Positions 6,133 through 64,000 of a stretch of 64,000 nucleotides of DNA are shown piece after piece. The position numbers and the translations under genes are program-made. The notes beneath the pieces were generated by a model. The model made no database searches. It had not been told where the DNA came from and was given only the letters and a program-made list of their open reading frames with translations. Location of the stretch: NCBI GenBank assembly GCA_964628455.1, contig CAZVPD010000003.1:2046-66045 (forward strand). Direction: 5' to 3'. Origin of the DNA: an uncultured Lachnospiraceae bacterium (GTDB lineage Bacteria; Bacillota; Clostridia; Oscillospirales; CAG-272). The first letter of the stretch is position 1. Every line of letters starts with the position of its first letter.

Positions 6133-6182
6133 CCCGCGGCGCTTCGGTTCCGTTTTAAATCATAGAATTTGCGGGGAATACT

Positions 6183-35582: not shown

Positions 35583-35622
35583 CCCTACGAGCCTTCTTAC
35601 ATTTAATACAGGGGGATTGATT

Positions 35623-42336: not shown

Positions 42337-42399
42337 AATACCGTAAACAGCCCGCAGGCAGGTTATTTTAAATTTATTATATATCTCGGAGGTTTTCAG

Positions 42400-43511: not shown

Positions 43512-43549
43512 GCGGGCAGAGACCGGAAGTTTTCTCTGCCCGCTTCTTG
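43512..43549 (+). terminator. hairpin, probable partial terminator between oxidoreductase and TIM-barrel genes
   Basis: Perfect 11-bp stem GCGGGCAGAGA / TCTCTGCCCGC followed by a weak T-tract (ttcttg). Confidence 0.55.
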
Positions 43550-43624
43550 CATGAAGACCTGTTTTCATTGGATCCGGATCATTGCATCCATAGAATAAAA
43601 TTAAATATTCAGGAGGATATTCAG

Positions 43625-50725: not shown

Positions 50726-50761
50726 GAAGCAATACCTTCTTTAATTCATATAGTATTTAAA

Positions 50762-51667
50762 TCACTCTTCATCCGAAAGGCTGTCTCCGCATAGTTTATG
50801 CAGCAGGATTCCAAGATCGTCGTTGTCTTCGTATTCAATGATCAGAGTATTCGGCTTTTGGGGGTTTTTATTGGAAATCCGGATCCTGCGGCCCAGTATA
50901 TTTGTCACTTTCCGCTCCAGCTCGGCATTGTAGTCCACGGACGGCGGTTTTTCGTCTTCCTGTCCGACGACCCTTTTTTTCTCTTCCGTCCGGTTCACAG
51001 ACCGTACCGCTTCTTCGGCAGCGCGTACCGAAAGCCCTTTTTTTAGTATGCTGCCTGCAAGCGTTTCCATATCCTCCCTGTTTTTCAGTCCCAGAAGCGC
51101 CCGTGCATGTCCGGCCGTCAGCTTGTCTTCCGCAACCATATTCAAAACTTTTTCCGGAAGGTCGAAAAGCCGCAGGGAATTGGCAACCGCACTTCGGCTG
51201 CGCCCGATCCGCCTGGATACTTCCTCCTGCGTGAGTCCGTATTCGTCTATTAAAGCACGGTATCCGCCCGCTTCCTCGACCGCATTGAGATTTTCACGCT
51301 GGATGTTTTCGATCAGTGCAAGTTCGGATGCACGCCTGTCGTCGGTATCCATGATGATAACCGGTATTTCGCTCAAACCCGCCATTTTTGCCGCCCGCCA
51401 GCGGCGCTCTCCGGCGATAATCTGGTAAAAGCCGTTCTCGCCTGCTCTCACCGCAATGGGTTGAATGATCCCGTTAGCCGCTATCGAATCGGCAAGCTGC
51501 GAAAGGCTTTCCATGTCGAAATTTTTCCGCGGCTGTCCGGAACGCGGTTCTATGTCGGATATACGAAGCATCGATGTGGTGCCCCGTTCATCTGCGGTAT
51601 TGTCGAGAAAGATGGCGTCAAGTCCGCGTCCGAGTCCGCCGGCTCTCGGTTTCTTTTCGTTTGCCAT
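50762..51667 (-). CDS. parB: ParB/Spo0J chromosome partitioning protein
   Basis: 301 aa. Contains GLGRGLDAIF, ParB box IIQPIAVR..YQIIAGERRWRAAKMAG, and HTH LTQEEVSRRIGRSRSAVANSLRLF. Confidence 0.9.
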   Translation of the reverse strand: MANEKKPRAGGLGRGLDAIFLDNTADERGTTSMLRISDIEPRSGQPRKNFDMESLSQLADSIAANGIIQPIAVRAGENGFYQIIAGERRWRAAKMAGLSEIPVIIMDTDDRRASELALIENIQRENLNAVEEAGGYRALIDEYGLTQEEVSRRIGRSRSAVANSLRLFDLPEKVLNMVAEDKLTAGHARALLGLKNREDMETLAGSILKKGLSVRAAEEAVRSVNRTEEKKRVVGQEDEKPPSVDYNAELERKVTNILGRRIRISNKNPQKPNTLIIEYEDNDDLGILLHKLCGDSLSDEE

Positions 51668-51814
51668 TTTTCCGCTCCTTTATAGGTCAACTGTACCTTC
51701 TGTCCCTTGTATGGAAAGTATAAAAAGCAGCGCTTGCGTTATAGTTTGCGGGGTTCATAACGCTGACCGCCCGGATATATGCCGATTCCCGGTTTTATTT
51801 CATTTAAGAAGGGG

Positions 51815-52576
51815 TCAGATCCGCTCCATGATTTCATCGGCAACGCTGTTGTATGCCTCTGTCCCCTTTGAATGGCGGTCAAAATACTGTATCGGCATAC
51901 CGAATCCCGGCGCTTCACTGAGCCTGACATTGCGCAGTATGGTTGTGGCGAAGAGTTTGCCGGCATAATATTTTTTAAGCTCATCCATCACCTGCAGCGA
52001 CAGATTAAGCCGTCCGTTGTACATGGTAATAAGGATTCCGGTTATGTCAAGAGCCGGATTATATAATTTTTTTACTTGCTTTATCGTAATTAAAAGCTGC
52101 GACAGTCCTTCCAGTGCGTAATATTCGCACTGCATGGGGACAATGACCCCGTCCGCAGCGGTAAGGGCATTTACCGTAAGAATTCCGAGAGAAGGCGGGC
52201 AGTCGATAAAAATATAATCAAATCTGTTTTTTATCGGAGCCAGCGCATTTCTGAGCCTGGTCTCCCTTGCTTCGGAAGAAACCAGTTCGAATTCCGCTCC
52301 GGCAAGCGATATATTAGCCGGCATAATCCATAAGTTTTTATAGCCGGTTTCTACGATAACGCTTTCTGCTCCGGCTCTGTTGATAAGCACGTCATAGGTA
52401 GACAAACGCATGTTTTTTTTGTTGATGCCGACTCCGCTTGAGGTGTTTCCCTGCGGGTCCGAATCGATAAGCAATACGCGCTTTTCTTTTACGCCGATAG
52501 CGGCGGCTATATTCACTGCCGACGTAGTCTTGCCGACGCCGCCTTTCTGATTCGCCAACGCTATGATTTTTGCCAA
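51815..52576 (-). CDS. parA: ParA/Soj chromosome partitioning ATPase
   Basis: TTG start 52576 (GAGAGG RBS 8 nt upstream) gives (M)AKIIALANQKGGVGKTT deviant Walker A and a 253-aa product. The 422-aa ORF in the track is an unsupported upstream extension overlapping rsmG. Confidence 0.9.
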   Translation of the reverse strand: MAKIIALANQKGGVGKTTSAVNIAAAIGVKEKRVLLIDSDPQGNTSSGVGINKKNMRLSTYDVLINRAGAESVIVETGYKNLWIMPANISLAGAEFELVSSEARETRLRNALAPIKNRFDYIFIDCPPSLGILTVNALTAADGVIVPMQCEYYALEGLSQLLITIKQVKKLYNPALDITGILITMYNGRLNLSLQVMDELKKYYAGKLFATTILRNVRLSEAPGFGMPIQYFDRHSKGTEAYNSVADEIMERI

Positions 52577-52679
52577 ATCCGCCGCCTCTCTTCCGTGTTT
52601 TCTGTTTGTTTCACCGGTATCTCGCCGGTATATTAAGGACAGCGTTTTTATTCCCGCACCGCCGTTTATAGTAAAACCA

Positions 52680-52708
52680 ATTATATCAATTATATAGCCT
52701 GTTGTCAA
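52680..52708 (-). promoter_or_regulatory. consensus sigma-A type promoter of parA-parB
   Basis: Minus strand TTGACA (52708-52703), 17-nt spacer, TATAAT (52685-52680), about 100 nt upstream of the TTG start. Confidence 0.6.
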
Positions 52709-52793
52709 CGGTTCGGTGACCGAATTTACGTAATTTTCAAACAAACCGGAGATACTGTCTTTGGTATGCCGCGAAAACGTTTTCCCGCCGGAT

Positions 52794-52809
52794 TGTTTCA
52801 CGTGAAACA
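52794..52809. promoter_or_regulatory. parS (ParB/Spo0J binding site), perfect consensus
   Basis: TGTTTCACGTGAAACA, identical to the copy at 45550-45565. Lies in the rsmG-parA spacer, 85 bp upstream of the parA -35 box. Confidence 0.8.
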
Positions 52810-52868
52810 ACAGATCTGTAAATTTACCGGAAGAGGGAGGGAACTGTTTGTCCAGGGGTTCAGGACAT

Positions 52869-52895
52869 AAAAAAATCCCGCTTTTCAGTCGGAAT
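52869..52895 (-). terminator. probable terminator of rsmG
   Basis: Minus strand ATTCCG-actgaaaag-CGGGAT 6-bp stem (one G-U) followed by TTTTTT, starting 3 nt after the rsmG stop. Confidence 0.5.
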
Positions 52896-52898
52896 TTT

Positions 52899-53660
52899 TC
52901 AGAGCGGCTTTTTGTTGATTTGCGAAAATTGACGCGGGTAGTTTTTCGGAGTTGTCCCGGTTTTACGTATGATGACCGTGCATCTTTTTTGTTTTTGTCC
53001 GTCTGCAATGAGAAATCCCTCGCTTTTTTCGATCCGGGTCCCTCCCAGTATCCGGACCGCGTTTTCCGCTTCCCTGATTTCAAGAATGCCTTCCGCGCCC
53101 TTCATGGCAATAAAAACACCGCCGACTGCCGTAAACGGCAGACAAAGTTCGCTGAGAACATTCAGACGCGCGACCGCTCTTGCTGTAACGATTGTAAATC
53201 GTTCTCTGAAAGCCGCTTCATGCGCAGCGCTTTCAGCCCGCCGGTTCAATGTGGTGATATTTGCGATCTGCAGCGAAGATGCTGCCTCATCAATAAACGC
53301 AAGCTTTTTTAAGGTGCTGTCAAGCGCCGTAACCGATACATCGGGACGTGCCGCGGCAATGGGAAGAGAAGGAAATCCCGCGCCGGCGCCCACATCGAGT
53401 ACCGACGCATTCATCGGGATCAGCCTGCAGACAGCCAGGCTGTCTGCAAGATGCTTCGCGATTATATCGGCCGGACGGCGTATGGCCGTCAGGTTTGTAT
53501 GGGCGTTATATTGCAGCAGCAGTTCCGTGAGTAAATACATCCGGCCGGATAAACCGGTATATTCGGCAAGTCCGTTTTCTTTCAGACACGACGTGAAAGC
53601 TTCATTGAACTCGGTTTGACTCATCATGGGGAGATCCCTGCTTTTTGTGTTTTTGGTCAT
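52899..53660 (-). CDS. rsmG: 16S rRNA (guanine527-N7)-methyltransferase RsmG (GidB)
   Basis: 253 aa. Contains HTNLTAIR and SAM-binding LDVGAGAGFPSLPIA. Start uncertain (ATG 53660, 53627 or 53624). Confidence 0.9.
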   Translation of the reverse strand: MTKNTKSRDLPMMSQTEFNEAFTSCLKENGLAEYTGLSGRMYLLTELLLQYNAHTNLTAIRRPADIIAKHLADSLAVCRLIPMNASVLDVGAGAGFPSLPIAAARPDVSVTALDSTLKKLAFIDEAASSLQIANITTLNRRAESAAHEAAFRERFTIVTARAVARLNVLSELCLPFTAVGGVFIAMKGAEGILEIREAENAVRILGGTRIEKSEGFLIADGQKQKRCTVIIRKTGTTPKNYPRQFSQINKKPL

Positions 53661-53666
53661 TCTTTC

Positions 53667-55097
53667 TCAGTGACGGAGTTGAATATGGGTAAGGATTTTA
53701 TATTCCTCGTAGTCTATTCCCCGCAGAATATTTTCAAGCTCCTCGTCACCCATGACCGTATTTCGCCCCGCGGCATATTCGGTATCGACCGCTTCCTTCA
53801 TTTTTATCACTATTTCGGAACGCTTATCGATAGCCTCTTCTCCGACAAGCCTGAAAAAGCTGTTTATCCAGTGTGCGATCCCGGCAAGACCGCTGTGTGA
53901 GTCGACGGCAACCGAAGCCGGCCGGTTGAGAATTTTTGCGGTATTGAAAATATTATAAATCTCTTCGTCTTTAAGCAGTCCGTCGGCATGAATTCCCGCC
54001 CGTGTGACATTGAAATTGCGTCCGACAAAAGGAGTGCGGGCCGGAATCTCATAACCTATTTCATCTTCGAAATAACGTGCGATTTCGGTAATGACCGAAA
54101 GGTCCATCCCGTCGGTCGTCCCGCGCAGTGAGGCGTATTCGATCGCCATTGCCTCAAGCGGGCAGTTGCCCGTTCTTTCGCCGATACCGAGCATAGAGCA
54201 GTTCACGCTCGATGCGCCGTACAGCCATGCTGTGGAAGCATTGGTAACCACTTTGTAGAAGTCATTGTGTCCGTGCCATTCAAGCATTTCGGAAGGAACT
54301 CCGGCATAATGCATGATGCCGTAAATTATCCCCTGAACAGAACGCGGAAGCGCGGTGCCGGGATATGAAACCCCGAAACCCATCGTGTCGCATGCCCTTA
54401 TTTTTATCGGAATACCGCTTTCGCGAGATAGGTCGTTGAGAGCTGCCGCAAGCGGGACCACAAAGCCGTAAAAATCCGCACGTGTGATGTCTTCAAAGTG
54501 GCAGCGGGGGCGTATGCCGTGTTCAAGAACATTTCTGACAATCCCGATATATTTTTCCATGGCTTCCGCGCGGGTAAGCTTCATCTTATTGTAAATATGA
54601 TAATCGGAACAGGAGACGAGTATGCCCGTTTCTTTTATACCGAGCTGCTTGACAAGTTCGAAATCTTTTTCGTTAGCCCGTATCCAGCTCGTTATTTCGG
54701 GAAACCGGTATCCCCGATCCATGCATTCGCGCAGCGCTTCCCGGTCTTTTTCCGTATAGACAAAAAACTCGCTCTGACGGATGATTCCCTTTTCTCCGCC
54801 GAGTTTATGGAGAAGGGTATATAGGTCGACAATCTGCTTCACCGTAAACGGTGAAGTTGACTGCTGACCGTCGCGGAAGGTTGTATCGGTTATCCATATG
54901 TTTTCGGGCATGTTGATCGGTACCGAACGGTGATTGAAAGACACTTTGGGTATACTGTCGTAATCAAACAAATGACGGTACAGATTGGGCGTTTCCCGAT
55001 CCTGCAGCTGGTAGCGGTAAGCGGATTGTTCAAGCAGTTTGGTTGTCTCCGAATAATAGAGAACGGTCGCCGGATTCTTCTCGTTTTCGTTATGCAT
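53667..55097 (-). CDS. HMGL-like (DRE-TIM) isopropylmalate/homocitrate/Re-citrate synthase family protein
   Basis: 476 aa. Contains WITDTTFRDGQQS and HGHNDFYKVVTNAS. About 75-aa N-terminal extension before the catalytic barrel. Confidence 0.75.
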   Translation of the reverse strand: MHNENEKNPATVLYYSETTKLLEQSAYRYQLQDRETPNLYRHLFDYDSIPKVSFNHRSVPINMPENIWITDTTFRDGQQSTSPFTVKQIVDLYTLLHKLGGEKGIIRQSEFFVYTEKDREALRECMDRGYRFPEITSWIRANEKDFELVKQLGIKETGILVSCSDYHIYNKMKLTRAEAMEKYIGIVRNVLEHGIRPRCHFEDITRADFYGFVVPLAAALNDLSRESGIPIKIRACDTMGFGVSYPGTALPRSVQGIIYGIMHYAGVPSEMLEWHGHNDFYKVVTNASTAWLYGASSVNCSMLGIGERTGNCPLEAMAIEYASLRGTTDGMDLSVITEIARYFEDEIGYEIPARTPFVGRNFNVTRAGIHADGLLKDEEIYNIFNTAKILNRPASVAVDSHSGLAGIAHWINSFFRLVGEEAIDKRSEIVIKMKEAVDTEYAAGRNTVMGDEELENILRGIDYEEYKILTHIQLRH

Positions 55098-55563
55098 AAT
55101 TTTTTATACTCACTTTCATTTGCAGGCTTCGGCTGCGGCTTTTTTTATTGTTATATACCCGCATTTATATAACAATTATCCTTTATTATAATTGCTATAC
55201 GGCTGGTTGTCCGTGTTTCCGTTTACAGCGTAACAGTATTATTATACACAGGTATATGAAATTTTGCAATAGCATTTCCTTCATTTTTAGATTGAATTTA
55301 TTAAAATAATTGTTAATTTTATAAAACCTCTTTACTTATAACTATATTCTGATATAATTTAGGTGTTGAGCCGAAACCGAAAAGCGATTATTTCATATTG
55401 TTTTTTTATCATCGGAGCGGTATTTGAACGTGCTTCCGCTGTTTTTGATTTTAATATTCTTCTTCGGTCCCGATGCCGTGCCGGGTTTCTTTTATACCGG
55501 AACATCATAAAACAATCCTATTTGTTTTTTTCCGTTATAATTTCAAACAAACATAAAAATACA

Positions 55564-55592
55564 TTGTCTTTTCCGTGACGATGTACTATAAT
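55564..55592 (+). promoter_or_regulatory. candidate promoter of the TIM-barrel/oxidoreductase operon
   Basis: TTGTCT (55564-55569), 17-nt spacer, TATAAT (55587-55592), 92 nt upstream of ATG 55685. Confidence 0.5.
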
Positions 55593-55684
55593 GCAGTTAG
55601 ATATGTGCGATAAAACGCGCTTCTATAAATATATTCGCTCTATTTCCGGAAACAAATACTTTTTATATCAAAGGAGAAACCAAC

Positions 55685-56503
55685 ATGATCAAATTAGGCG
55701 TAAACAGCGTTCTTTTCAAAACCGTTGATTTTGCGACCGCGGCAAGAGCCATACGCAAATGCGGTTTTGACGGAGTTGAAATATCCGGCATACAGGGCAT
55801 GTGCGAACATCTGAATTTAGCTTCCTGGAAACAGGACAAACTGACCCTGCGCGCCATATCCGATGAAAACGAACTCCCCTTCCTTTCAACGGAACTGGCT
55901 ACCCTTGACCGGGAAAGACTTCTCCTCGCTTTTGAAGCCTGTGCCGAGATCGGGATCCCGATCGTGAATGTGGGACCGGGCGGCAAGTCGGGCGATGAGG
56001 AATCCTTAAAAGTGTCTGTCGAAACAATAGCCGCAAGGGCAGAAGACGCCGCTCAGTTCGGTATCATTCTGTGCTGCAAGGCGCATGTCGGATCTTCCGT
56101 ATACAATACGCCTACCACTCTGGCTTTGACGGAAGCTGTAAATCACCCGAACTTCGGCGTCGATATGGATCCGTCGCATATTTTCCGCGCGGGCGAAAAT
56201 CCTGCCGAGGCTCTTCCCGCTGTTATTTCCCGCGTGAAGCATATTCACATCCGCGACTGCAAAGGCCCCGGCCCGAGTCCGGGAACTCCTCAGCTGCAGG
56301 CATGCGGACGTGGCGACATCGACCTCGCCGGATATTTCCGTGCCATGGTGGAAGCCGATTATGACGGACCGGTAAGTCTTGAGGTGATAGGTCCGGACCA
56401 GGATTTACAGGCCGCTTCCATCATCGCCGCAGAAAGTTACGGTTATATGAACGCGATCCTCAAATCTCTCGGAAGAACGGCAAAACTCGTCAGAGGCAGA
56501 TAA
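55685..56503 (+). CDS. sugar phosphate isomerase/epimerase (xylose isomerase-like TIM barrel)
   Basis: 272 aa, AAGGAG RBS. Contains GFDGVEISG, VDMDPSHIFRAGE, HIHIRDCKG, SLEVIG. Confidence 0.8.
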   Translation: MIKLGVNSVLFKTVDFATAARAIRKCGFDGVEISGIQGMCEHLNLASWKQDKLTLRAISDENELPFLSTELATLDRERLLLAFEACAEIGIPIVNVGPGGKSGDEESLKVSVETIAARAEDAAQFGIILCCKAHVGSSVYNTPTTLALTEAVNHPNFGVDMDPSHIFRAGENPAEALPAVISRVKHIHIRDCKGPGPSPGTPQLQACGRGDIDLAGYFRAMVEADYDGPVSLEVIGPDQDLQAASIIAAESYGYMNAILKSLGRTAKLVRGR

Positions 56504-56564
56504 GGCGGATTCATACGGCTTATAATCCGGCATGTCTTGAAATTTATTATAAGGAGTATTGAAA

Positions 56565-57653
56565 ATGGCAAAGAAATTAAGGATCGGTATCATCGGAACA
56601 GGCGGAATAGCGCATGCCCATGCCGGCGCTTACAAGCGTTTTGAGGATGTTGAGGTTGTTGCGGGCGCGGACATCATTCCCGATAAGGCAAGGAAATTTC
56701 TTGACGAATTCGGCTGGGAGAAAGCCGATGCTTATGAGACCCACGAAGAACTCTGCGCACGCAAAGACATCGATGCCGTATCCGTGTGTACCTATAACTC
56801 GACGCATTCGGTCTGCGCCGTAGCGGCACTCGAATCGGGAAAACATGTATTGCTTGAGAAACCCATGGCGATCACGATAGAACAGGGCCTTGACATTGTC
56901 CGCGCCGAAAAAAAGAGCGGTAAAATCGTCACGATCGGATTTCAGCCCCGTTACGGCCAGAACTATAAACGCGTGAAAGAAATCATCTCATCGGGAGCCC
57001 TGGGAGATATTTATTATGTTCAGACCGGCGGCGGCCGCCGCCGCGGTATTCCCGGAGGAACATTTATAGATAAAACCAAAGCAGGCGTGGGTGCTCTTGC
57101 CGACATCGGCTGTTATGCTCTTGATTTTGCGTTGAATTCCATCGGCTATCCCCGCCCGCTGACGGTTTCCGCGGTAGCACTTGACCATTTCGGAAAAAAC
57201 CCGAAATATTACGGCAATCCCGACGCCTTTTCGGTCGATGACTTCTCCGCAGCCTTTATCCGTCTCGAAGGCGGGATCACACTGGACTTCCGCATGACCT
57301 GGGCAATGCATATGGACACGACCGGAGATTTCATCTTCCTCGGCAAGGAAGCGGGACTCAAAGTCAAACAGCCTAACCTCGAACTCTGGGGAGGCGCGTG
57401 GGACGGCACCGTCGGCGATATCACGCTGTATCACGATGTCCTCGGCTATCCCACCAGTACTCCGATCCCGATCAACCGCGATGAAAAAGGCGATCTTTTC
57501 GGCTCCAAGGTGCGTGCTTTCGTCGATGCGGTCAAAACAAAAGGTCCGGCGCCCATTCCGACAAGCCAGATTATCTATAACCAGGCTATTATCGACGGCA
57601 TCATCCGTTCGGCAGCCTGCGGTCATGAAGTTGACGTGACTTTTAAAATTTAA
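56565..57653 (+). CDS. Gfo/Idh/MocA family oxidoreductase (tandem paralog A)
   Basis: ATG 56565 (AAGGAG 8 nt upstream). Contains MAKKLRIGIIGTGGIAHAHA and LLEKPMAITI. Confidence 0.85.
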   Translation: MAKKLRIGIIGTGGIAHAHAGAYKRFEDVEVVAGADIIPDKARKFLDEFGWEKADAYETHEELCARKDIDAVSVCTYNSTHSVCAVAALESGKHVLLEKPMAITIEQGLDIVRAEKKSGKIVTIGFQPRYGQNYKRVKEIISSGALGDIYYVQTGGGRRRGIPGGTFIDKTKAGVGALADIGCYALDFALNSIGYPRPLTVSAVALDHFGKNPKYYGNPDAFSVDDFSAAFIRLEGGITLDFRMTWAMHMDTTGDFIFLGKEAGLKVKQPNLELWGGAWDGTVGDITLYHDVLGYPTSTPIPINRDEKGDLFGSKVRAFVDAVKTKGPAPIPTSQIIYNQAIIDGIIRSAACGHEVDVTFKI

Positions 57654-57749
57654 AGCAAAAATATACGTCTTTGCTCTCCGAATCGCCAAGATGTCGGTGT
57701 ATTTCGATTGAAACCGTCTCCCTCTTATTTCAATAAGGAGCAACCCAAC

Positions 57750-58841
57750 ATGGATAAACTCAGAATCGGCATTATAGGCACGGGCGGTATAGCCGGCTCT
57801 CATGCAAAAGTATACAAAAGCTTTAAGGATATCGAACTTGTCGCCGGCGCTGACATCATACCCGGTAAAGCGAGAGCTTTCCTCGACAGTTACGGGTTCC
57901 CGGACGCTGATGCCTATGAAACCTGTGAAGAGCTCTGCAGCCGCGATGACATAGATGCGGTTTCCGTCTGCACGTATAACTCGGCTCATGCGGTCTGCGC
58001 CATTGCCGCGCTTGAGTCCGGTAAATATGTCCTGCTTGAAAAGCCGATGTGCGTCACGCTTGCCGAAGGACTCGAAATCATGCGGGCTGAAAAATCGTCC
58101 GGTAAATTTGTTACGGTCGGCTTTCAGCCTCGTTATAATGAAAATTTCAAAACGATCAAGCGTATAGTGGATGCCGGAACCCTCGGAAAAATATATTATG
58201 TTCAGGTCGGCGGTTCACGCCGACGCGGTATCCCCGGAGGCACTTTCATCGATAAAGAAAAAGCAGTGTTCGGCGCGATCGGAGACCTCGGCTGTTATTC
58301 CCTGGACCTGTCTCTGAATTCCATCGGATATCCGAAGCCTTTGACTGTATCGGCCTACACTTCCGATTACTTCGGGACAAATCCGAAATACTACTCCGAA
58401 GCCTCCCGGTTCACAGTGGATGATTTTTCCGCAGCGTTTATACGTCTCGAAGGCGACATCATCCTTGACTACCGCATGGCATGGGCCATGCATATGGATA
58501 TATGCAGCGAATTTGTCATACTCGGCACAGACGCCGGTCTTAAGACAAAAGCACCCGAGCCAAACCCGCTCTGGGGTTCAATCATCGGCGGCGACATTGC
58601 CGGACTTTACCTCATGCACGACGACGAAAAAGGTTCGCCCGTTTCAACGAAGATAGAACTTCCCCCTACGCCGTATGACCAGTTCGCGATGAAGATCCGG
58701 GATTTTTGCGATGCTGTCGTGAACAAACGGGAAGCCCCGATCCCCACCTCTCAGATCATACGCAATCAGGCGATCATCGACGCCATGCTCATCTCCGCGA
58801 GGGAGCGCTGTGAGGTCAAAGTAGAGATCCCCGAAATATAA
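57750..58841 (+). CDS. Gfo/Idh/MocA family oxidoreductase (tandem paralog B)
   Basis: ORF trimmed to ATG 57750 (AAGGAG RBS). Contains MDKLRIGIIGTGGIAGSHA and LLEKPMCVTL. Collinear with paralog A over its full length. Confidence 0.85.
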   Translation: MDKLRIGIIGTGGIAGSHAKVYKSFKDIELVAGADIIPGKARAFLDSYGFPDADAYETCEELCSRDDIDAVSVCTYNSAHAVCAIAALESGKYVLLEKPMCVTLAEGLEIMRAEKSSGKFVTVGFQPRYNENFKTIKRIVDAGTLGKIYYVQVGGSRRRGIPGGTFIDKEKAVFGAIGDLGCYSLDLSLNSIGYPKPLTVSAYTSDYFGTNPKYYSEASRFTVDDFSAAFIRLEGDIILDYRMAWAMHMDICSEFVILGTDAGLKTKAPEPNPLWGSIIGGDIAGLYLMHDDEKGSPVSTKIELPPTPYDQFAMKIRDFCDAVVNKREAPIPTSQIIRNQAIIDAMLISARERCEVKVEIPEI

Positions 58842-58888
58842 AATCCTGTTTTAAAAAATCATAAAAAAAACAAAAGGAGAAATAAACA

Positions 58889-60280
58889 ATGCCAAAAAAA
58901 CCGAATATTCTCTTCTTCGGAATAGACAGTCTTCGCAGCGATTTGACCAGTTTATACGGTTATAAAAAGAAGACGACCCCTCATATCGAAAAATTCCTGG
59001 AAAAAGACTCTGTCGTATTTGACAAAATGTTCAGTCCTTCGATCCCCACCACGCCGGGTTACGCCTCCATGCTCTCGGGCATGGACTGCTTCGGCACCGA
59101 TGTCGTAGCTCTCCGCCATCAGGGCGGCATCAGGGAGGACCTTGTTTCTCTTCCCGATGTTCTGGCCGCCAACGGATATAATACCACAAACATAGGATAC
59201 GGATTCAAAGGATTCCAGACAAACCTGAATTATCCCATCAGCTGGGGTGCCTGGGAATCCGGACGCTCGGCAAAAGCCGAAAGCATGAATACCGTGGCGG
59301 TGCCCGAACTTGAAAGACTCGCCAAAGAAGACAAACCCTTCTTCCTGTTTTTGCGCCATATGGACCCGCATTCGCCCTATCTTCCCCCTCAGCCTTTCGA
59401 GAGAATGTTCTACTCCGGAAATGAATTCGATCCGGAAAACAAGTCGCTTGAACCGGTCTACAATTTCGTTCCGTTCAGAGACTACTTCTATACCTGGTTC
59501 CCGCCGGGATGTACGGATGCCGAATACATCAACGCCCAATACGAAGGCGCCGTGGCATATATGGATTCCTGCATATCCATCATTTTGAACAAACTTGAAT
59601 ATCTGGGAATAGCAGACAACACCATTGTCGTTTTTACCTCCGATCACGGCGAAACGTTATATGACCACGACTGCTATTTTGACCATCACTCCATGTATGA
59701 CAACTGCCTTACCGTTCCGCTTGCGATAAAATATCCGAACGGCAGCAGAAAATACTTCCGCAACTGCGACCACCGCAAAGAATATGCGCAGACCAAGGAC
59801 ATCATGCCTACGGTGCTTGCACTTGCCGGAATCGAAACCGACATCCGTTTCGACGGGCGGAACCTGTTTGACGTCATAGACGGCAAAGCACCTCAGGAAC
59901 CGGAGTTCTATATAACTGAGGCGACCTGGATGCGCAAGCACGGCTGGCGTACTCCCGAATGGAAGCTTATGGTCGCGCTTGAACCCGACTTCCACTTCAA
60001 ACCTCCGGTTGAGCTTTACAACCTTGTGAAGGACCCGAAAGAATACAATAACCTTGCCGATAAAGAACCGGAAATCGTGAAGCTTCTCACCGACCGCATG
60101 CTGGCTCATATCGCAAAACGCGAAGCCGAAACCGGCAGAACAGCCCCTATCTATACCAACCTGAACTGGAACGGATTCGGCCGTCCGTTCGCTTCTTCGG
60201 AAGAAGCGTACAATACCCTTCATATCGGCGATCCGGAAGCGGCGAAGAAACTTCAGGAAGTACTCAACAAGAAAAAGTAA
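58889..60280 (+). CDS. sulfatase-fold (alkaline phosphatase superfamily) protein lacking the formylglycine motif
   Basis: 463 aa. KPNILFFGIDSLRSD metal-binding N terminus. At the position of C/S-x-P-x-R it reads SIPTTPGYASMLSG. Later contains TSDHGE. No signal peptide. Confidence 0.8.
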   Translation: MPKKPNILFFGIDSLRSDLTSLYGYKKKTTPHIEKFLEKDSVVFDKMFSPSIPTTPGYASMLSGMDCFGTDVVALRHQGGIREDLVSLPDVLAANGYNTTNIGYGFKGFQTNLNYPISWGAWESGRSAKAESMNTVAVPELERLAKEDKPFFLFLRHMDPHSPYLPPQPFERMFYSGNEFDPENKSLEPVYNFVPFRDYFYTWFPPGCTDAEYINAQYEGAVAYMDSCISIILNKLEYLGIADNTIVVFTSDHGETLYDHDCYFDHHSMYDNCLTVPLAIKYPNGSRKYFRNCDHRKEYAQTKDIMPTVLALAGIETDIRFDGRNLFDVIDGKAPQEPEFYITEATWMRKHGWRTPEWKLMVALEPDFHFKPPVELYNLVKDPKEYNNLADKEPEIVKLLTDRMLAHIAKREAETGRTAPIYTNLNWNGFGRPFASSEEAYNTLHIGDPEAAKKLQEVLNKKK

Positions 60281-60315
60281 AATCACAGGATTCCGGACAG
60301 TTCCGGAAAAGTTCG

Positions 60316-60378
60316 GCATACCGGACGCGCTGAATTTATTTCTTCGGGAAATACCTGCGTCCGGCCCGTCCGGTATGC
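60316..60378 (+). terminator. long hairpin, candidate terminator/attenuator
   Basis: GCATACCGGACG (60316-60327) pairs perfectly with CGTCCGGTATGC (60367-78), followed by tgATTTTAtatt. Alternative 8-bp pairing: CCGGACGC (60321-28) with GCGTCCGG (60357-64). Confidence 0.35.
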
Positions 60379-60407
60379 TGATTTTATATTAAGGAAGGCA
60401 AAAAATC

Positions 60408-61418
60408 ATGCAACGAATATGCGTCATCGGCATGGGTCCTATCGGCAATACGCACGCGCGCGCTTACCGCGACTGCCCCGGAGCGGAACTGGTCGGAGTA
60501 TGCGACCTGATCCCGGAACGCGCCGAAACCGCTTCGAAGACATACGGCGTGCCGTATTACCTCGACGCCGTGAAAATGCTCGCAGAACTGAAACCCGATA
60601 TCGTCAGCGTCACCACCGGCGGAAAAGAATATTCATCCGACCACTATCTGCCGACCATTCAGGCGCTGGAAGCGGGATGTCATGTCCTCGGGGAAAAGCC
60701 GATATCCGATGATCTGCGTCACGCCCGGGAAATGGTCGATACCGCAAAACGTCTCGGACGCTGTTACGGCATCGACATGAATCACAGGTTCACACCTCCC
60801 GCGCGCCAGGCCGAAAAATGGATGGCAGACGGACGGATAGGAGAACTCCTGTTCTGCAATATGGCTCTCTGGATCGGAAAATTCATGCCGCTCGATTCGG
60901 AATATTACCACCTGAAGGCTTTAAATCCGCACAGCGTCAATATCATGCAGCACTTCTGCGGCCCGGTCGACGAGGTTTCCTGCTTTGCCTATAAGGCGAA
61001 GGGACGCGACATCTGGTCAACAGCCTCCATCAATATGCGTTTCAGGTGCGGCGCAGTCGGTCATCTGACCTCCTCTTACGATATCCGCCGCGGTCATCCT
61101 ATGGAACGCTGCGAAGTGGCGGGTACGGAAGGACGTTTCGTATTTGAAGACATGTGGAGGCAGGCGACTTTATATCCCTCCGAAACCTATCTGAAAGAAG
61201 TTTACACCAATCCTGTTTTTGACGGCTACCGTGATTTCGAAGATACCTTCCGCTGCCGTATTCATACTTTCGTGCAGCAGATCGAAAACGGCGCAAAGCC
61301 GGATGAAATCGACGGTTCGGGCGTCGAAGGACTGGAAGCGCAGCGTGTCATTCACGCGGCAATCGCATCCATAAAGAACAACGGCGCCGTAATAAAGGTA
61401 GCCGATGTCACGGAATAA
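60408..61418 (+). CDS. Gfo/Idh/MocA family oxidoreductase
   Basis: 336 aa. Contains MQRICVIGMGPIGNTHA and VLGEKPISDDL. AAGGAAGG RBS. Confidence 0.85.
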   Translation: MQRICVIGMGPIGNTHARAYRDCPGAELVGVCDLIPERAETASKTYGVPYYLDAVKMLAELKPDIVSVTTGGKEYSSDHYLPTIQALEAGCHVLGEKPISDDLRHAREMVDTAKRLGRCYGIDMNHRFTPPARQAEKWMADGRIGELLFCNMALWIGKFMPLDSEYYHLKALNPHSVNIMQHFCGPVDEVSCFAYKAKGRDIWSTASINMRFRCGAVGHLTSSYDIRRGHPMERCEVAGTEGRFVFEDMWRQATLYPSETYLKEVYTNPVFDGYRDFEDTFRCRIHTFVQQIENGAKPDEIDGSGVEGLEAQRVIHAAIASIKNNGAVIKVADVTE

Positions 61419-61453
61419 CCCGCTTTCCCCTCCCCGCCAGAAGGAGACACCCT

Positions 61454-62317
61454 ATGTCAACCCCCGGATTTCTCGACGACAGTCTTTTTGACGCCGGCAG
61501 CGTAAAAATACGGGTCATGTCCGCCGAACACAACGGCAAAACATGGCTTCACCGCCATGCGTTTTACGAATTTGTATACATCGATACCGGGTTTACGCTG
61601 CACTCGCATGACGGAAGAACCTCCGTGCTTACTGCGGGAGACCTGTTCGCGATCTGTCCGAATGAAGCGCATTCCTACAGCAGTTCCTACCACACCAATC
61701 TGTATAACTGCCTGTTTTACCTTGAAGAACTGTCGGGATTAAGCGATGAGATCCTTTCCCTGCCCGGAATGGGCGAACTTCTCCACAGCGGCGGAACGCC
61801 TTTTCCCGTACTGCATGTGGGACTTCCCGAACGCCGGGACCTGGTGCTGATACTCGAGAAGATGAAGTGGGAAAATCAAACCCGGGCTGCCGGCTGGCAG
61901 CTGAGTTTAAAAAGCCTGCTGATATCTTTTCTTATCTACTATTCGAGACTGTACTGCACCGAGCAAACTGTCCGCAAAAGTCAGGACGGGGGCGGATATT
62001 ACAGTTATATTTACCGTGCGCTCGAATACATCGAGCAGAATTATAAAAACGACATAGGCGGCCGCGAAATTGCGGAATGCACCGGGTTATCACATGATTA
62101 TGTTGCCAAACAGTTCAAGAATATCCTGTCTATGACTCCGAGTGAGTATATCCGCCGTTTCCGTGTCGCAAAATCGATGGAGCTGCTTAAAACGACGTCT
62201 ATGACTGCCGCGGAAATATCCGCGGATGTCGGATTCGGTGATATAAGCCTGTATTCACGGGTTTTTAAGCAGCTGATAGGCATTACACCCACGGCGTTCC
62301 GCAAAAGCGGTGAGTAA
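61454..62317 (+). CDS. AraC family transcriptional regulator
   Basis: 287 aa. N-terminal cupin-like sensor (HAFYEFVYIDTGFTLHSH). C-terminal double HTH (IAECTGLSHDYVAKQFK; GFGDISLYSRVFKQLIGITPTAFR). Confidence 0.85.
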   Translation: MSTPGFLDDSLFDAGSVKIRVMSAEHNGKTWLHRHAFYEFVYIDTGFTLHSHDGRTSVLTAGDLFAICPNEAHSYSSSYHTNLYNCLFYLEELSGLSDEILSLPGMGELLHSGGTPFPVLHVGLPERRDLVLILEKMKWENQTRAAGWQLSLKSLLISFLIYYSRLYCTEQTVRKSQDGGGYYSYIYRALEYIEQNYKNDIGGREIAECTGLSHDYVAKQFKNILSMTPSEYIRRFRVAKSMELLKTTSMTAAEISADVGFGDISLYSRVFKQLIGITPTAFRKSGE

Positions 62318-62350
62318 AAATCATATGCTCTGCAAAAAAAGGAGGGATAC

Positions 62351-63811
62351 ATGAACAAAAGACGGCATATGCTATTGATTCTGTCTGTTTTATTTATTCT
62401 TTCCTCTCTATCCTCTCTTTCGGCCTGCGCGCAGAACACCGGTGTCGATACCGCCGGAACTTCCGGGGCGGTTGTCACACAGCCCGCAGAAAAAGACAAA
62501 CTGGGCTACCTGCCCGAGGCGGATTATGAGGGTTACGAATTCCGTATGCTCATACGCAACGCCGAACGCTGGATAAATGACATGGTTGTCGAAACCGAAA
62601 CAGGGGATGTGGTGGACGATGCGCTGTACCGCCGCAATCAGACAGTCTCCGAACGGTACAATGTCCTTTTTAAACTGATAAAGAGTTCGAATGATAACTA
62701 CGAAACCGATGCGGTAGAAACCATTATCGCAAACGACGACGCATACGATTTAATCGTTCCTCATCCCCGTGCGTCGTTTGTATATGCAAACCAGGGCCTT
62801 TTCATGGACTGGAATACCGATCTGCCGAACATTAATCTTGATAATCCCTGGTGGGACCGGGATGCCCGCGCTAATTTCTCCATAAACCGCCGCTTATATG
62901 TGATGGTGGGTGACATCAGTTATCAATGTATGGGCGCGTGTGACGTTATGCTGTTCAACAAAGCCCTCTTTGACAAATATAACCTCCCCTATCCTTATGA
63001 AAGCGTAAACTCAAACACATGGACTTTCGATACGTTTGAGAAGTATCTCCTGCTTGCCTCAAGTGATCTGAACGGAGACGGCGAATATTCCGAAAGCGAC
63101 GATCAGTTCGGATATGTCACCCAATACTGGGTCGGGCCGATCGAGGCGCTTTATGTTGCAGGTCAGCGGATTCTGCAAAAGGACGAAAACGATATCCCTT
63201 ATATCAGCCTGTATAACGAAACAACGCTGAACGTTTTTAACTGGTATTACGGAATTCTCGACAGCGACGCCGGTTATGTCCAGACCACCGGTCATTCATG
63301 GGACGGCGGATTCCTTTCGATATTCAGCGAAGGGCGCTCTATGTTCATTGACATGAATATGGACGATGTCATCACCATGCGCACCATGGACGCCGATTTC
63401 GGGATCATTCCATGGCCTAAATACGACGAAAGTTCGGAATTCTGCACCAATGTAGACGCCGGAACCAACTTATTCGGTGTTCCCGTAACAAATCCGGATC
63501 CGTCCCGCACCGGTCATATACTCGAATCCCTGTGTGTGCTGGGCAGCGAAACGGTCATACCCGCCTATTATGAAATTGCGCTGCAAACCAAATTCGCCCG
63601 TGATGAGGACTCTGCCGCGATGCTGGACATCATTAAGCAAAGCCGTGTGTTTGATCTCGGTTACTATAACAACAATCTGGTCGGGGTATTTGCCAACCAG
63701 TTTGCGGCTTTCGCCGCCACCGACGACCGTGATTTTACCTCGTGGTACGAAAAAAATCTTAAATCCGCGCAGGCAAGCCTTGATGAATTAATCGCAGTGT
63801 ATACGCAATGA
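62351..63811 (+). CDS. extracellular solute-binding lipoprotein, orphan
   Basis: 486 aa, AGGAGGG RBS. Signal MNKRRHMLLILSVLFILSSLSSLSAC. Blocks VVDDALYRRN, NPWWD, DLNGDG, IIPWPKYDE, IPAYYE, MLDII. Confidence 0.8.
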   Translation: MNKRRHMLLILSVLFILSSLSSLSACAQNTGVDTAGTSGAVVTQPAEKDKLGYLPEADYEGYEFRMLIRNAERWINDMVVETETGDVVDDALYRRNQTVSERYNVLFKLIKSSNDNYETDAVETIIANDDAYDLIVPHPRASFVYANQGLFMDWNTDLPNINLDNPWWDRDARANFSINRRLYVMVGDISYQCMGACDVMLFNKALFDKYNLPYPYESVNSNTWTFDTFEKYLLLASSDLNGDGEYSESDDQFGYVTQYWVGPIEALYVAGQRILQKDENDIPYISLYNETTLNVFNWYYGILDSDAGYVQTTGHSWDGGFLSIFSEGRSMFIDMNMDDVITMRTMDADFGIIPWPKYDESSEFCTNVDAGTNLFGVPVTNPDPSRTGHILESLCVLGSETVIPAYYEIALQTKFARDEDSAAMLDIIKQSRVFDLGYYNNNLVGVFANQFAAFAATDDRDFTSWYEKNLKSAQASLDELIAVYTQ

Positions 63812-63858
63812 ATTTATACCGGACAAATAATTTTTATATAAATATAAAGGAGAACCAC

Positions 63859-64000
63859 AATGAATAAACCATTAAAAGTCGGCGTCGTCGGAATGGGCGG
63901 AATCGGCAATACACATGCGGCCTGTCATCAGAGCGATGAACTGGCGCAGCTTGTTGCGGTATGCGACTGGGTCAAAGAAAAAGCCGACGCTGCCGCGGAA
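63859..64000 (+). CDS. Gfo/Idh/MocA family oxidoreductase, N-terminal part (runs off the right edge)
   Basis: ATG 63859 with AAGGAG RBS. MNKPLKVGVVGMGGIGNTHAACHQSDE Rossmann motif. Frame is open to the window end. Confidence 0.7.

Follow-up and report, generated by a model that had tools for sequence, protein, structure and literature searches.

The last eight genes of the window (the whole 64,000-nucleotide stretch of DNA that was analysed) contain a conserved core: a xylose-isomerase-like TIM barrel, a Thr-type sulfatase-fold enzyme and GfoC and GfoD, a paralogous pair of Gfo/Idh/MocA dehydrogenases. With a likelihood judged a little short of even, the cluster breaks down an imported sugar or glycoside, one that carries an ester group, probably sulfate, by an oxidise–eliminate–reduce route in the cytoplasm. 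The original prediction had read the region as a multi-step oxidation/elimination pathway lying outside the textbook routes. A sugar-oxidation unit and a likeness to DgpA are both supported, but the cluster is composite, and its eight genes do not form a single indivisible pathway. Published examples of the oxidise–eliminate–reduce logic already exist: AL/BT, DgpA and levoglucosan degradation. No description was found of the cassette with its Thr-type enzyme, which matched no characterised family in the profile libraries or literature searched. The features of the region are as follows:

55564..55592, + strand: promoter-like site, TTGTCT-17 nt-TATAAT, found by consensus scan within the 587-bp gap 5' of the first gene
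55685..56503, + strand: xylose-isomerase-like TIM barrel, 272 aa, core member (PF01261, E 1e-26)
56565..57653, + strand: GfoA, DgpA-like NAD-dependent glycoside dehydrogenase, 362 aa from ATG (PF01408, PF22725, PF02894; Gfo/Idh/MocA E 3e-28)
57750..58841, + strand: GfoB, tandem paralog of GfoA, 363 aa from ATG (Gfo/Idh/MocA Pfam E 7e-25)
58889..60280, + strand: Thr-type sulfatase-fold enzyme, 463 aa, the signature gene of the cassette (PF00884, E 3e-40, and PF16347)
60408..61418, + strand: GfoC, core Gfo/Idh/MocA dehydrogenase, 336 aa (Pfam)
61454..62317, + strand: AraC-family regulator with a cupin-type ligand-binding domain, 287 aa (PF12833 (HTH_18), PF00165, PF02311 (AraC_binding))
62351..63811, + strand: lipoprotein of a divergent SBP_bac_1 family, 486 aa, with an LSAC lipobox
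63860..64000, + strand: GfoD, second core Gfo/Idh/MocA dehydrogenase, first 47 codons, cut by the window end (PF01408, E 1e-5)

ORF calling, Pfam and NCBIfam confirm that all eight + strand, co-directional genes are real and carry the domains first assigned to them. The ATG starts proposed for GfoA (56565) and GfoB (57750) also hold, giving proteins of 362 and 363 residues, the lengths called in relatives; alternative TTG starts lie at 56559 and 57708. The fourth oxidoreductase is present and truncated at the window edge as described, but begins at 63860 rather than 63859; in L085, L086 and L001 the complete protein has 359 aa, and the cluster ends with this gene in the L085 and L086 contigs, which share 93.8% DNA identity with the window. 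Intergenic gaps measure 33–127 bp, a scan of the cluster found no + strand terminator-like site in any of them, and no Rfam family matches anywhere in 55000–64000. The single promoter originally proposed corresponds to a consensus match only, and such matches are no more numerous in the region (15, against 11.1 +/- 3.5 expected by shuffling) than chance predicts. None of the enzymes has a signal peptide. Pfam finds no glycoside hydrolase, kinase or permease domain in the eight genes; the reported lack of a glycosidase and a permease is thus true of the window's copy, but not of related loci, in which CUT1 ABC importers and GH18, GH78, GH35 and GH4 genes lie beside the cassette and RhaA lies nearby, a setting that speaks for catabolism.

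Confirmed copies of the sulfatase-fold gene lie in 591 genome stretches, the best 80 of which, from about ten phyla, were examined; recurrence of gene families was tallied over 81 related loci, and 45 loci had full flanks. A TIM-barrel ortholog lies immediately 5' of the sulfatase-fold gene in 64 of the 81 loci. Among the fully flanked loci, TIM and Gfo orthologs accompany the gene in 39 of 45, and two or more Gfo genes do so in 35 of 45. The core occurs in Clostridia, Bacillus/Paenibacillus, Armatimonadota, Planctomycetota, Verrucomicrobiota-type lineages, Lentisphaerota, Latescibacterota, Chloroflexota and Spirochaetota. The synteny search suggested at the outset bore fruit: the order TIM, sulfatase-fold, Gfo, (AraC), Gfo is repeated in distant phyla, and the start of one gene often overlaps the stop codon of another. 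This synteny shows that the adjacency is not a matter of chance alone. It is hardly credible, then, that these are unrelated sugar-metabolism genes without a common pathway, brought together in a genome that has many Gfo/Idh/MocA and TIM-barrel paralogs, even though the window does hold three other Gfo genes (13672–14742, 25261–26322 and 42244–43485), a second TIM barrel (43547–44593) and five paralogous binding lipoproteins, and its promoter-like site is nothing beyond a consensus match.

The four oxidoreductases all retain the GxGxxG and EKP motifs. Four genes of this family had been counted, and four there are, but they are really two paralog pairs, GfoA/GfoB with 64% identity and GfoC/GfoD with 37%. 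The best PDB matches of GfoA are DgpA1 (9m3d, 8e-47) and DgpA (7xr9, 1.5e-46), GfoB matches DgpA1 with an E of 8e-40, and across both proteins and both structures the values range from 8e-47 to 7e-37. GfoA and GfoB are thus closest to DgpA, a glycoside 3''-dehydrogenase, which fits an oxidation followed by elimination. Among the loci examined, GfoA is confined to the close relatives L001, L007, L009–L012 and L085, and GfoB to L001, L012 and L085; the tandem pair is a lineage-specific addition outside the conserved core. GfoC orthologs lie 3' of the sulfatase-fold gene in most loci. The best NCBIfam match of GfoC, to UDP-GlcNAc 3-dehydrogenase, spans the full length but scores 98 bits against a cut-off of 450, and the best PDB match of GfoC is 3q2i (E 6e-15). 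For the TIM barrel, predicted to be a lyase, isomerase or dehydratase acting on a keto-sugar, all NCBIfam matches fall far under the curated cut-offs; its best PDB match is 3tva (E 4e-10), and those to IolI and AsbF are weak.

These names raise the question of whether the unit is a cyclitol (inositol-type) interconversion or degradation module, performing IolG/IolX/IolW- and IolI/IolE-like steps on a free or esterified cyclitol that the sulfatase-fold enzyme would release from its ester. IolG is among the best NCBIfam names for GfoA and GfoB, as is IolE for the barrel, and the IolI structure is a weak PDB match for the latter. Such a module is nevertheless improbable: the scores lie 4- to 10-fold under curated cut-offs (95–97 bits against 355–540, and 30 against 290), GfoA and GfoB match DgpA far better than any inositol dehydrogenase, and the adjoining genes are glycosidases and sugar importers. 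IolB, IolC, IolD and IolJ are not found among the recurrent gene families of the 81 related loci, so that embedding in classical iol operons, the outcome named beforehand as speaking against the original prediction, is not what these loci display. With matches to IolG/IolE, levoglucosan dehydrogenase and BT_2158/2159 models all far below NCBIfam cut-offs, the view of the cluster as a functional sugar-oxidation unit distinct from a classical iol operon is upheld.

The sulfatase-fold enzyme had been called Thr-type, and rightly so. Thr54 occupies the position of the Cys or Ser converted to formylglycine in three independent alignments, and the motif [IV]PT..[GA]Y, which includes it, is found in 120 of the 120 best homologs. 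The metal ligands D13, D252 and H253 are retained, as is the His161 of the 'PH.P' motif of S1 sulfatases. Tyr58 (Y58) stands in place of the CxPxR Arg, the GKWH Lys/His motif is missing, H266 replaces the sulfate-binding Lys, and three additional His residues (H157, H260 and H267) are invariant. Profile alignments and a Foldseek search with the AF2 model, in which the top 50 matches are all S1 sulfatases or PMH, establish that the enzyme descends from S1 carbohydrate sulfatases; the model has a pLDDT of 73, but its confidence is low precisely at the active-site loops (residues 52–55 and 254–275), which weighs against the favoured explanation. The enzyme is cytoplasmic, has no signal peptide and is at least 58% identical across phyla. 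A sulfo-threonine intermediate is expected from established chemistry to be hard to hydrolyse, which makes simple hydrolysis of a sulfate ester doubtful. Four residues that the enzyme lacks (Arg, Lys, His and Lys) have equivalents that are essential in the related arylsulfatase EfAS (PMC12421950), an observation that counts against the favoured explanation.

The nature of the ester is indicated by neighbours in other genomes. In 10 loci, the sulfatase-fold gene and GfoC are separated by a sulfotransferase gene (PF13469) whose start overlaps the stop codon before it and whose product has intact PAPS-binding-type motifs, GHSGTR and RDPRD. In Paenibacillus an APS kinase gene (cysC) lies inside the operon, followed by a second Thr-type paralog, while in Bacillus the cassette is followed by ATP sulfurylase, a sulfate transporter and CysC. 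Canonical Cys-type CxPxR sulfatases are present in 11 loci. Together, these neighbours point to sulfate-ester chemistry, and sulfate is most likely the decoration. Of the phospho/sulfo-ester-type hydrolase originally proposed, the sulfo alternative is thus favoured, but the enzyme itself is not a canonical sulfatase. Sulfur-related neighbours occur in just 15 of the 45 fully flanked loci, and Pfam finds none among the window's own eight genes; both observations weigh against the preferred explanation. The co-occurrence of a sulfotransferase and sulfatases in one pathway, for which plain desulfation does not account, is a further observation against it. Neighbouring glycosidases and binding proteins vary by genome and indicate no single sugar.

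That the ester is instead a phosphate is unlikely. The Thr-type enzyme would then hydrolyse phosphomonoesters or phosphodiesters, or work as a phosphomutase, with a sugar phosphate or a glycoside in phosphodiester linkage (a teichoic-acid or phosphoglycan fragment, for instance) as its substrate, and the sulfur-related neighbours would be unrelated or serve other steps. In the alkaline-phosphatase superfamily, a Thr or Ser nucleophile typically goes with phosphoryl transfer (NPP, LtaS, EptA/MCR-1, phosphopentomutase and PhnA), the Lys-to-His change at 266 and the invariant H157, H260 and H267 resemble His-rich Thr-type sites, and weak PF01663 and EptA/LtaS profile matches were obtained. Relatives in the PMH/arylsulfatase clade are, moreover, promiscuous for phosphate and phosphonate esters (PMC12421950). 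Against this, sequence and fold place the enzyme with S1 carbohydrate sulfatases and not with LtaS, EptA or NPP, and no kinase, PTS component or phosphatase family recurs beside the cassette in the 81 loci, unlike sulfotransferase, APS kinase, ATP sulfurylase and Cys-type sulfatases.

Somewhat less probable again is that sulfation serves as activation, with the sugar being sulfated by the neighbouring sulfotransferase with PAPS, or with PAPS supplied through the in-operon APS kinase. The Thr-type enzyme would then be a sulfuryl-transfer or sulfate-eliminating enzyme rather than a hydrolase, acting on a sulfated and possibly oxidised intermediate, and sulfate would be the leaving group, the role of phosphate in kinase-dependent routes. 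A kinase is indeed absent from every version of the cassette (Pfam in the window; 81 loci), the overlapping sulfotransferase genes and the Paenibacillus and Bacillus arrangements fit such a scheme, and ordinary sulfatase chemistry sits badly with the remodelled active site. However, most loci, including the window, have no sulfotransferase or APS kinase nearby, PAPS is costly, and sugar catabolism offers no example known to us of activation driven by PAPS. That APS kinase and ATP sulfurylase lie beside the cassette could simply mean that released sulfate is assimilated, and the canonical sulfatases fit degradation of an already sulfated nutrient.

In the preferred scheme, catabolism of an imported sulfated sugar, the lipoprotein would capture the substrate and hand it to an ABC importer whose genes lie elsewhere in the genome. 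GfoA and GfoB may then oxidise a sugar hydroxyl with NAD+, at C3 by analogy, and the TIM barrel could catalyse a beta-elimination or isomerisation made possible by the keto group. GfoC and GfoD are proposed to perform a second oxidation and the final re-reduction, which would make the sequence redox-neutral. The sulfatase-fold enzyme would remove or transfer the ester group by way of a metal-activated Thr54 and a covalent enzyme intermediate, with no formylglycine. The AraC regulator probably controls the locus; in 16 loci its ortholog is flanked by the two core Gfo genes. The designation of the lipoprotein as an SBP has only indirect support, through its kin: of its four paralogs in the window one reaches 30 bits on PF01547, and PF01547/PF13416 domains are present in many homologs (45–55% identity), which bear the name extracellular solute-binding protein, whereas the lipoprotein itself has no Pfam match even at E 5, is negative by hhalign against a canonical SBP and yields an AlphaFold model with a pLDDT of 35. 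It is a probable extracellular binding protein for the substrate. Family members adjoin the cassette in L002, L004, L005, L009, L012, L016 and L022, and the gene is missing from L001; it is an insertion or deletion, a lineage-specific addition.

Among known systems, the levoglucosan (LgdA/B1/B2/C) and myo-inositol (IolG/IolE/IolI) routes likewise combine Gfo/Idh/MocA enzymes with xylose-isomerase-fold barrels and keto intermediates, but have no sulfatase-fold partner, and their models score poorly here (LgdA 48–75 bits against 650, IolG 91–95 against 355, IolE 30 against 290). With S1 sulfatases and the arylsulfatase-PMH clade (BT4656 5g2v, BT3177 7p24, 4uph, EfAS), the Thr-type enzyme shares PF00884 and PF16347 (profile E 3e-38 to 1e-30; Foldseek TM ~0.6), the Asp13, Asp252 and His253 ligands and His161; unlike the formylglycine-dependent S1 members, it has Thr54, Tyr58 and His266, with neither a C/S-x-P-x-R motif nor GKWH. 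As in the Thr-type EptA/LtaS/MCR enzymes, a Thr at the nucleophile position lies by an Asp/Asp-His metal site with extra conserved histidines, which suggests a covalent Thr intermediate; unlike them, it has no membrane domain. By sequence and fold, the enzyme is no relative of that group (NCBIfam 16–42 bits against cut-offs of 250–1250; none in the Foldseek top 50).

DgpA, an NAD-dependent 3''-dehydrogenase acting on flavonoid glycosides, works together with xylose-isomerase-fold partners. GfoA and GfoB resemble the DgpA/DgpB–DgpC C-glycoside deglycosylation system of gut Clostridia in being most similar to DgpA, but here they are accessory: the core GfoC and GfoD are only distantly similar to it (E 1e-11 to 1e-14), and the barrel has no PDB match named DgpB or DgpC at E <= 0.001. 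In the AL/BT 3-keto-glycoside pathway of gut Bacteroidota (BT2156-2160; the Alistipes 'AL' cluster), two Gfo/Idh/MocA oxidoreductases act with a TIM barrel, annotated as 'sugar phosphate isomerase' but in fact a 3-keto-glucoside 1,2-lyase, in a redox-neutral sequence of oxidation, elimination, hydration and reduction without a Koshland-type glycosidase (bioRxiv 10.1101/2024.03.25.586180). The cassette described here shares the dehydrogenases, the barrel and, as proposed, the redox-neutral logic, yet scores 32–60 bits on the BT_2158/BT_2159 NCBIfam models against cut-offs of 650–750. Whereas AL/BT is periplasmic and uses a DUF1080 lyase/hydratase, the enzymes here have neither signal peptides nor DUF1080, and their fourth core member is a Thr-type sulfatase-fold enzyme.

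The right end of the window carries eight consecutive open reading frames on the + strand, from 55.6 kb to the window end, and their Pfam assignments agree with the gene list of the original prediction, which had described an eight-gene redox operon. In order, these are:

55685-56503, +, xylose-isomerase-like TIM barrel (Pfam PF01261)
56565-57653, +, GfoA, a Gfo/Idh/MocA oxidoreductase in tandem with GfoB (Pfam)
57750-58841, +, GfoB, a Gfo/Idh/MocA oxidoreductase in tandem with GfoA (Pfam)
58889-60280, +, sulfatase-fold protein (Pfam PF00884)
60408-61418, +, GfoC, the third oxidoreductase (Pfam)
61454-62317, +, AraC regulator (Pfam)
62351-63811, +, lipoprotein without a direct Pfam match
63860 onwards, +, GfoD, the fourth oxidoreductase, with only its first 47 codons in the window (Pfam)

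All of the genes lie on one strand, separated by gaps of 33-127 bp in which no terminator-like sites were found on the + strand. Together with the gene order kept in other genomes, these features are indirect evidence for a putative single operon with one promoter. A promoter-like site at 55564-55592 is a good match to the consensus, in a region where the count of such sites is not above chance; an Rfam search of 55000-64000 returned no family matches. In the gap upstream of the cluster the repeats are short and AT-rich. Because the genes further upstream (encoding an HMGL-like enzyme, rsmG, parA, parB and serS) are housekeeping genes on the opposite strand, the cluster begins cleanly. This set of genes (serS, parB, parA, rsmG (gidB) and the HMGL-like gene; 49451-55097, - strand) is typical of the surroundings of a replication origin. 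There is an overlap between rsmG and the long, TTG-started open reading frame at 51815-53083, whose ParA domain does not begin until residue 172; the real parA start is therefore probably internal.

At the other end, the sequence can be followed beyond the window in two contigs, which share 93.8% identity with the window across 11.6 kb. In both, the fourth oxidoreductase (359 aa) is the final gene of the cluster, and is followed after a gap of ~400 bp by a radical-SAM activase and a PFL-like protein. This pair (5417-8262 in one of the contigs, L086) was considered as part of the cluster and rejected, given the ordinary pyruvate formate-lyase size of the 732-aa glycyl-radical enzyme; it was judged to consist of ordinary pyruvate formate-lyase genes outside the cluster.

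When one genome per species was scanned, at least 591 stretches were found to encode a relative of the sulfatase-fold protein. The best 80 of these, together with the two related loci L001 and L002, gave the 81 non-redundant loci that were analysed. An orthologous TIM barrel lies directly upstream of the sulfatase-fold gene in 64 of the 81, and 68 of them have dehydrogenases of the GfoC/GfoD type downstream. In 45 loci at least 4 kb of sequence flanks the sulfatase-fold gene on either side; the TIM barrel is accompanied by a Gfo gene in 39 of these, and by two or more in 35. In 16 of the 81 loci the two Gfo genes have an orthologous AraC gene between them. Across the same loci GfoA and GfoB are limited to the closest relatives, and the lipoprotein gene, absent from L001, is an insertion or deletion. 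The eight genes therefore resolve into a conserved four-gene cassette (the TIM barrel, the sulfatase-fold enzyme and the GfoC/GfoD pair), a regulator and lineage-specific additions.

The sulfatase-fold protein matches PF00884 with an E-value of 2.6e-40, and its profile matches PDB sulfatases with values down to 3e-38. In a Foldseek search with the predicted model, the top 50 hits were S1 sulfatases or PMH without exception. By sequence and predicted structure, the protein belongs with the S1 carbohydrate sulfatases and the arylsulfatase/phosphonate-monoester-hydrolase clade. The family alignment shows no variation at the metal ligands D13, D252 and H253, which align with those of PDB sulfatases; His161 is also kept. 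The C/S-x-P-x-R formylglycine motif is absent, the aligned segment being T54-T-P-G-Y58. The protein had been called ‘Thr-type’, and this holds: Thr54 occupies the formylglycine position in alignments, and the Thr and the Tyr are invariant in 120 of the 120 best homologs. Tyr58 stands in place of the motif Arg, the GKWH Lys/His motif is missing (the corresponding segment reads ‘vgFsGn’), and the sulfate-binding Lys, located about 13 residues past the Asp-His/Asn metal ligands, is replaced by His266. In EfAS, a structurally related Mn-dependent arylsulfatase, the equivalent residues are individually essential, including K110, H112 and K324 (PMC12421950).

The position of the invariant T54, at the nucleophile site next to the metal, is a feature common to LtaS and EptA/MCR. 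Kinship with these proteins was not found, with NCBIfam scores of 16-42 bits against cut-offs of 250-1250 and no member in the Foldseek top 50. There is also no N-terminal membrane domain; the protein begins at the first beta-strand, without a hydrophobic N-terminus. Conservation in the family is unusually high: between Clostridia and Planctomycetota identity stays at 58% or above, and numerous His, Arg and Lys residues do not vary. With such conservation, the protein is no decayed sulfatase but an enzyme under strong constraint whose chemistry is altered.

All four of the predicted Gfo/Idh/MocA family members are present, and on closer inspection they form two paralog pairs, GfoA/GfoB (64% identical) and GfoC/GfoD (37% identical). 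GfoC and GfoD are each ~28-31% identical to GfoA/GfoB over the N-terminal domain. The GxGxxG and EKP motifs are kept in all four proteins, none of which has a signal peptide. In the PDB, GfoA matches DgpA1 (9m3d, E 8e-47) and DgpA (7xr9, E 1.5e-46), and GfoB matches the same two entries (9m3d, E 8e-40; 7xr9, E 7e-37). DgpA and DgpA1 are NAD-dependent glycoside 3''-dehydrogenases of gut Clostridia. With this close similarity and the NAD-binding and EKP motifs, GfoA and GfoB would class as enzymes of the DgpA type. GfoC and GfoD have no close relative among PDB structures. Matches to the NCBIfam equivalogs for IolG, UDP-GlcNAc 3-dehydrogenase, levoglucosan dehydrogenase, BT_2158/2159, IolE and hydroxypyruvate isomerase all fall far under the curated cut-offs. 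The TIM barrel carries its PF01261 domain, a PDB search points to no specific family, and nothing named DgpB or DgpC, the C-deglycosidase partner subunits in DgpA systems, was found there at E <= 0.001. A second pairing of a Gfo/Idh/MocA oxidoreductase (42244-43485, +; 35% identical to GfoA) with a xylose-isomerase-like TIM barrel (43547-44593, +) adjoins an orphan binding lipoprotein, and two more Gfo genes occupy 13672-14742 and 25261-26322; the genome is thus rich in Gfo/TIM-barrel pairing.

The lipoprotein of the cluster has no Pfam match, including to SBP_bac_1 and SBP_bac_8, at E <= 5. Its comparison with a canonical solute-binding protein by hhalign was negative (probability 0.3), and its AF2 model was unusable (pLDDT 35). 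An exact-sequence look-up gave no match; close relatives were found through homologs. At 45-55% identity there are many homologs that have PF01547/PF13416 and bear the name of solute-binding protein, and a paralog in the window (40691-42157) scores 30 bits on PF01547, where the cut-off is 26. Judged from these relatives, the lipoprotein is most likely a divergent family-1 solute-binding protein. The 64 kb contain five lipoproteins that are paralogs within a single divergent family of solute-binding proteins:

412-1929, -, binding lipoprotein
35497-37131, +, binding lipoprotein
37181-38647, +, binding lipoprotein
40691-42157, -, binding lipoprotein
62351-63811, +, binding lipoprotein of the cluster

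They are mutually 27-32% identical, and only 40691-42157 scores above the PF01547 threshold. No ABC permease was found beside them among the annotated neighbours, part of the window's open reading frames having been scanned. Two related loci encode ABC binding proteins whose PDB matches are only generic CUT1 sugar binders; these two proteins are not orthologous to each other and give no clue to the substrate. Among the orphan lipoproteins of the window lie a GH3 glycosidase (31531-33705, +) and a protein of 650 aa that matches GH5 faintly (38668-40620, +), so the wider region is carbohydrate-oriented; the cluster itself has no glycosidase. Elsewhere in the window, a 729-aa fusion of a GT4 glycosyltransferase and a polysaccharide pyruvyl transferase (45586-47775, -) adjoins a protein that has MORN repeats and, at its N-terminus, a membrane segment (47888-48787, -).

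In other genomes, the cassette has several neighbours indicative of sulfate chemistry. In 10 loci, belonging to Armatimonadota, Planctomycetota, Kiritimatiellia, Opitutaceae and Chloroflexota, the sulfatase-fold gene and GfoC are separated by a gene for a PF13469 sulfotransferase that has motifs of the PAPS-binding type; this gene frequently overlaps the adjoining ones at its start and stop codons. In Paenibacillus the order is GfoC, APS kinase, a second Thr-type paralog, an AraC gene and a canonical CxPxR sulfatase. The complete and self-contained locus on the megaplasmid of a cultured strain, Paenibacillus cellulositrophicus KACC 16577 (L084, NZ_CP045296.1 836456-848524), is annotated as a sensor kinase, a response regulator, a binding protein, two permeases, Gfo, isomerase, sulfatase, Gfo, cysC, sulfatase (the second Thr-type paralog), AraC and sulfatase-like (the Cys-type). 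In Bacillus the cassette is followed by ATP sulfurylase, a sulfate-type transporter and CysC. Canonical Cys-type sulfatases lie near the cassette in 11 loci, and at least one of these sulfur genes is present in 15 of the 45 fully flanked loci.

Other recurring neighbours include CUT1 ABC importers, GH18, GH78, GH35, GH4, RhaA, a second TIM barrel, ASRT-like and URO-D-like proteins; the glycosidases and binding proteins vary between genomes. Several loci of gut and rumen Clostridia (L004 11559-12647, L031 4570-5607, and the same position in L013 and L016) have a GH18 gene as an insertion that separates the sulfatase-fold gene from GfoC, which may hint at substrates containing GlcNAc. In Bacillus-type loci (L065 7714-8082, L064, L067 and L083) the gene immediately upstream of the cassette encodes a small protein of the ASRT family (PF07100, Anabaena sensory rhodopsin transducer-like); in a Planctomycetota locus (L061 14591-15313) one is encoded downstream. 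Proteins of the URO-D family (uroporphyrinogen-decarboxylase-like) are encoded inside the window (8534-9547, +), immediately past the cassette in L001 (12329-13222), the closest relative, and two genes downstream of the cassette in a Hebobacteria locus (L035 9671-10636).

The best-supported reading is that the cluster encodes a cytoplasmic catabolic route of the oxidise-eliminate-reduce type. It would act on an ester-bearing sugar or glycoside, the ester being most likely a sulfate, and the Thr-type enzyme would process that ester. Chance adjacency of the eight genes is unlikely; the synteny check suggested with the original prediction finds the gene order conserved elsewhere, around the four-gene core. 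A cyclitol route, another of the substrates first envisaged, is also unlikely. The cluster is not a classical iol operon (IolG 91-95 bits against 355, IolE 30 against 290); no kinase, aldolase or ThDP-enzyme domain occurs in the eight genes, and no kinase, aldolase or Iol enzyme (IolB/C/D/J) is a recurrent neighbour family in the 81 loci.

On mechanistic grounds, a phosphoester substrate for the Thr-type enzyme is a serious rival to the sulfate ester. With a Thr nucleophile, a member of this superfamily is expected to form a covalent Thr intermediate, and hydrolysis of a sulfo-threonine would be difficult. On the side of sulfate stand the sulfur genes around the cassette. Plain desulfation does not account for the PAPS-type sulfotransferase and the APS kinase, so sulfate may instead be installed as an activating group and the Thr enzyme may be a sulfuryl transferase or lyase, a less probable reading. 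Taken to its full extent, this would make the Thr54 protein a new formylglycine-independent sulfuryl-processing class (a transferase, lyase or mutase, not a hydrolase). The cassette would then be a widespread route of sugar catabolism whose activating or leaving group is not phosphate but a sulfate ester, imported as such or PAPS-installed by the neighbouring sulfotransferase/APS kinase; we regard this combined proposal as improbable. A reverse sulfotransferase harvesting PAPS from sugar sulfates was rejected on group-transfer potential, that of alkyl sulfate esters being much below that of PAPS. Cleavage of the sulfoquinovose C-S bond, by analogy with PhnA, was rejected for want of gene-context support.

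Should the proposed reading of the cluster hold, ester-decorated sugars would be handled in an undescribed way by a cassette that hundreds of bacterial species carry; the habitats of these species are animal guts, rumen, soil, anaerobic digesters and fresh water. The sulfatase family would gain a member with new chemistry and no need for formylglycine-generating machinery. This would bear on the turnover of sulfated glycans and plant glycosides in anaerobic communities, on the annotation of thousands of ‘sulfatase’-labelled proteins, and on enzyme discovery for formylglycine-free desulfation or sulfation. Cultured carriers include P. cellulositrophicus KACC 16577, a good experimental model, Bianquea renquensis NSJ-32 and Metabacillus rhizosphaerae.

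The original prediction placed the pathway outside the textbook routes. Its interpretation is partly supported: a route of the sugar-oxidation/elimination type is the best reading, but the overall strategy is already known, and the pathway does not lie wholly off documented routes. DgpA systems follow oxidise-eliminate-reduce logic. The same logic is documented for the periplasmic AL/BT 3-keto-glycoside lyase pathway (bioRxiv 10.1101/2024.03.25.586180). The likeness to that pathway is one of logic only: scores against NF058561/NF058563, the models for its BT_2158/BT_2159 families (glycoside 3-dehydrogenase and 3-keto-sugar reductase), are 32-60 bits (cut-offs 750/650), and whereas the AL/BT pathway is periplasmic and uses a DUF1080 lyase/hydratase, none of the eight proteins here has DUF1080 and the enzymes lack signal peptides. 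The AL/BT pathway also has a TIM-barrel 3-keto-beta-glucoside 1,2-lyase; the barrel here has a PF01261 domain, and its PDB matches single out no family. For levoglucosan degradation (LgdA/B1/B2/C), scores against the LgdA equivalog NF052479 reach 48-75 bits, against a cut-off of 650. The classical myo-inositol operon is defined by IolG and IolE equivalogs together with IolB/C/D/J, a set absent here. Cpz4 of caprazamycin biosynthesis was considered as a sulfatase-fold sulfotransferase analogue; a review describes it as AST-type and is silent on its fold, and the analogy was dropped.

The Thr-type enzyme shares its fold and metal ligands with the S1 formylglycine-dependent sulfatases, but lacks C/S-x-P-x-R and the sulfate-binding Lys/His/Lys. 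With the LtaS/EptA/MCR Thr-type phosphotransferases it has the Thr nucleophile in common, but neither family similarity nor a membrane domain. No description of the cassette, or of a Thr-type or formylglycine-independent sulfatase, was found in the open-access papers and preprints searched in full text, though other literature may hold one; a cassette with a Thr-type S1-like enzyme and a PAPS link is likewise absent from Pfam, NCBIfam and PDB names. The general strategy is known; what appears new, no earlier account having been found, is the cassette with its formylglycine-less Thr-type enzyme and its link to PAPS metabolism.
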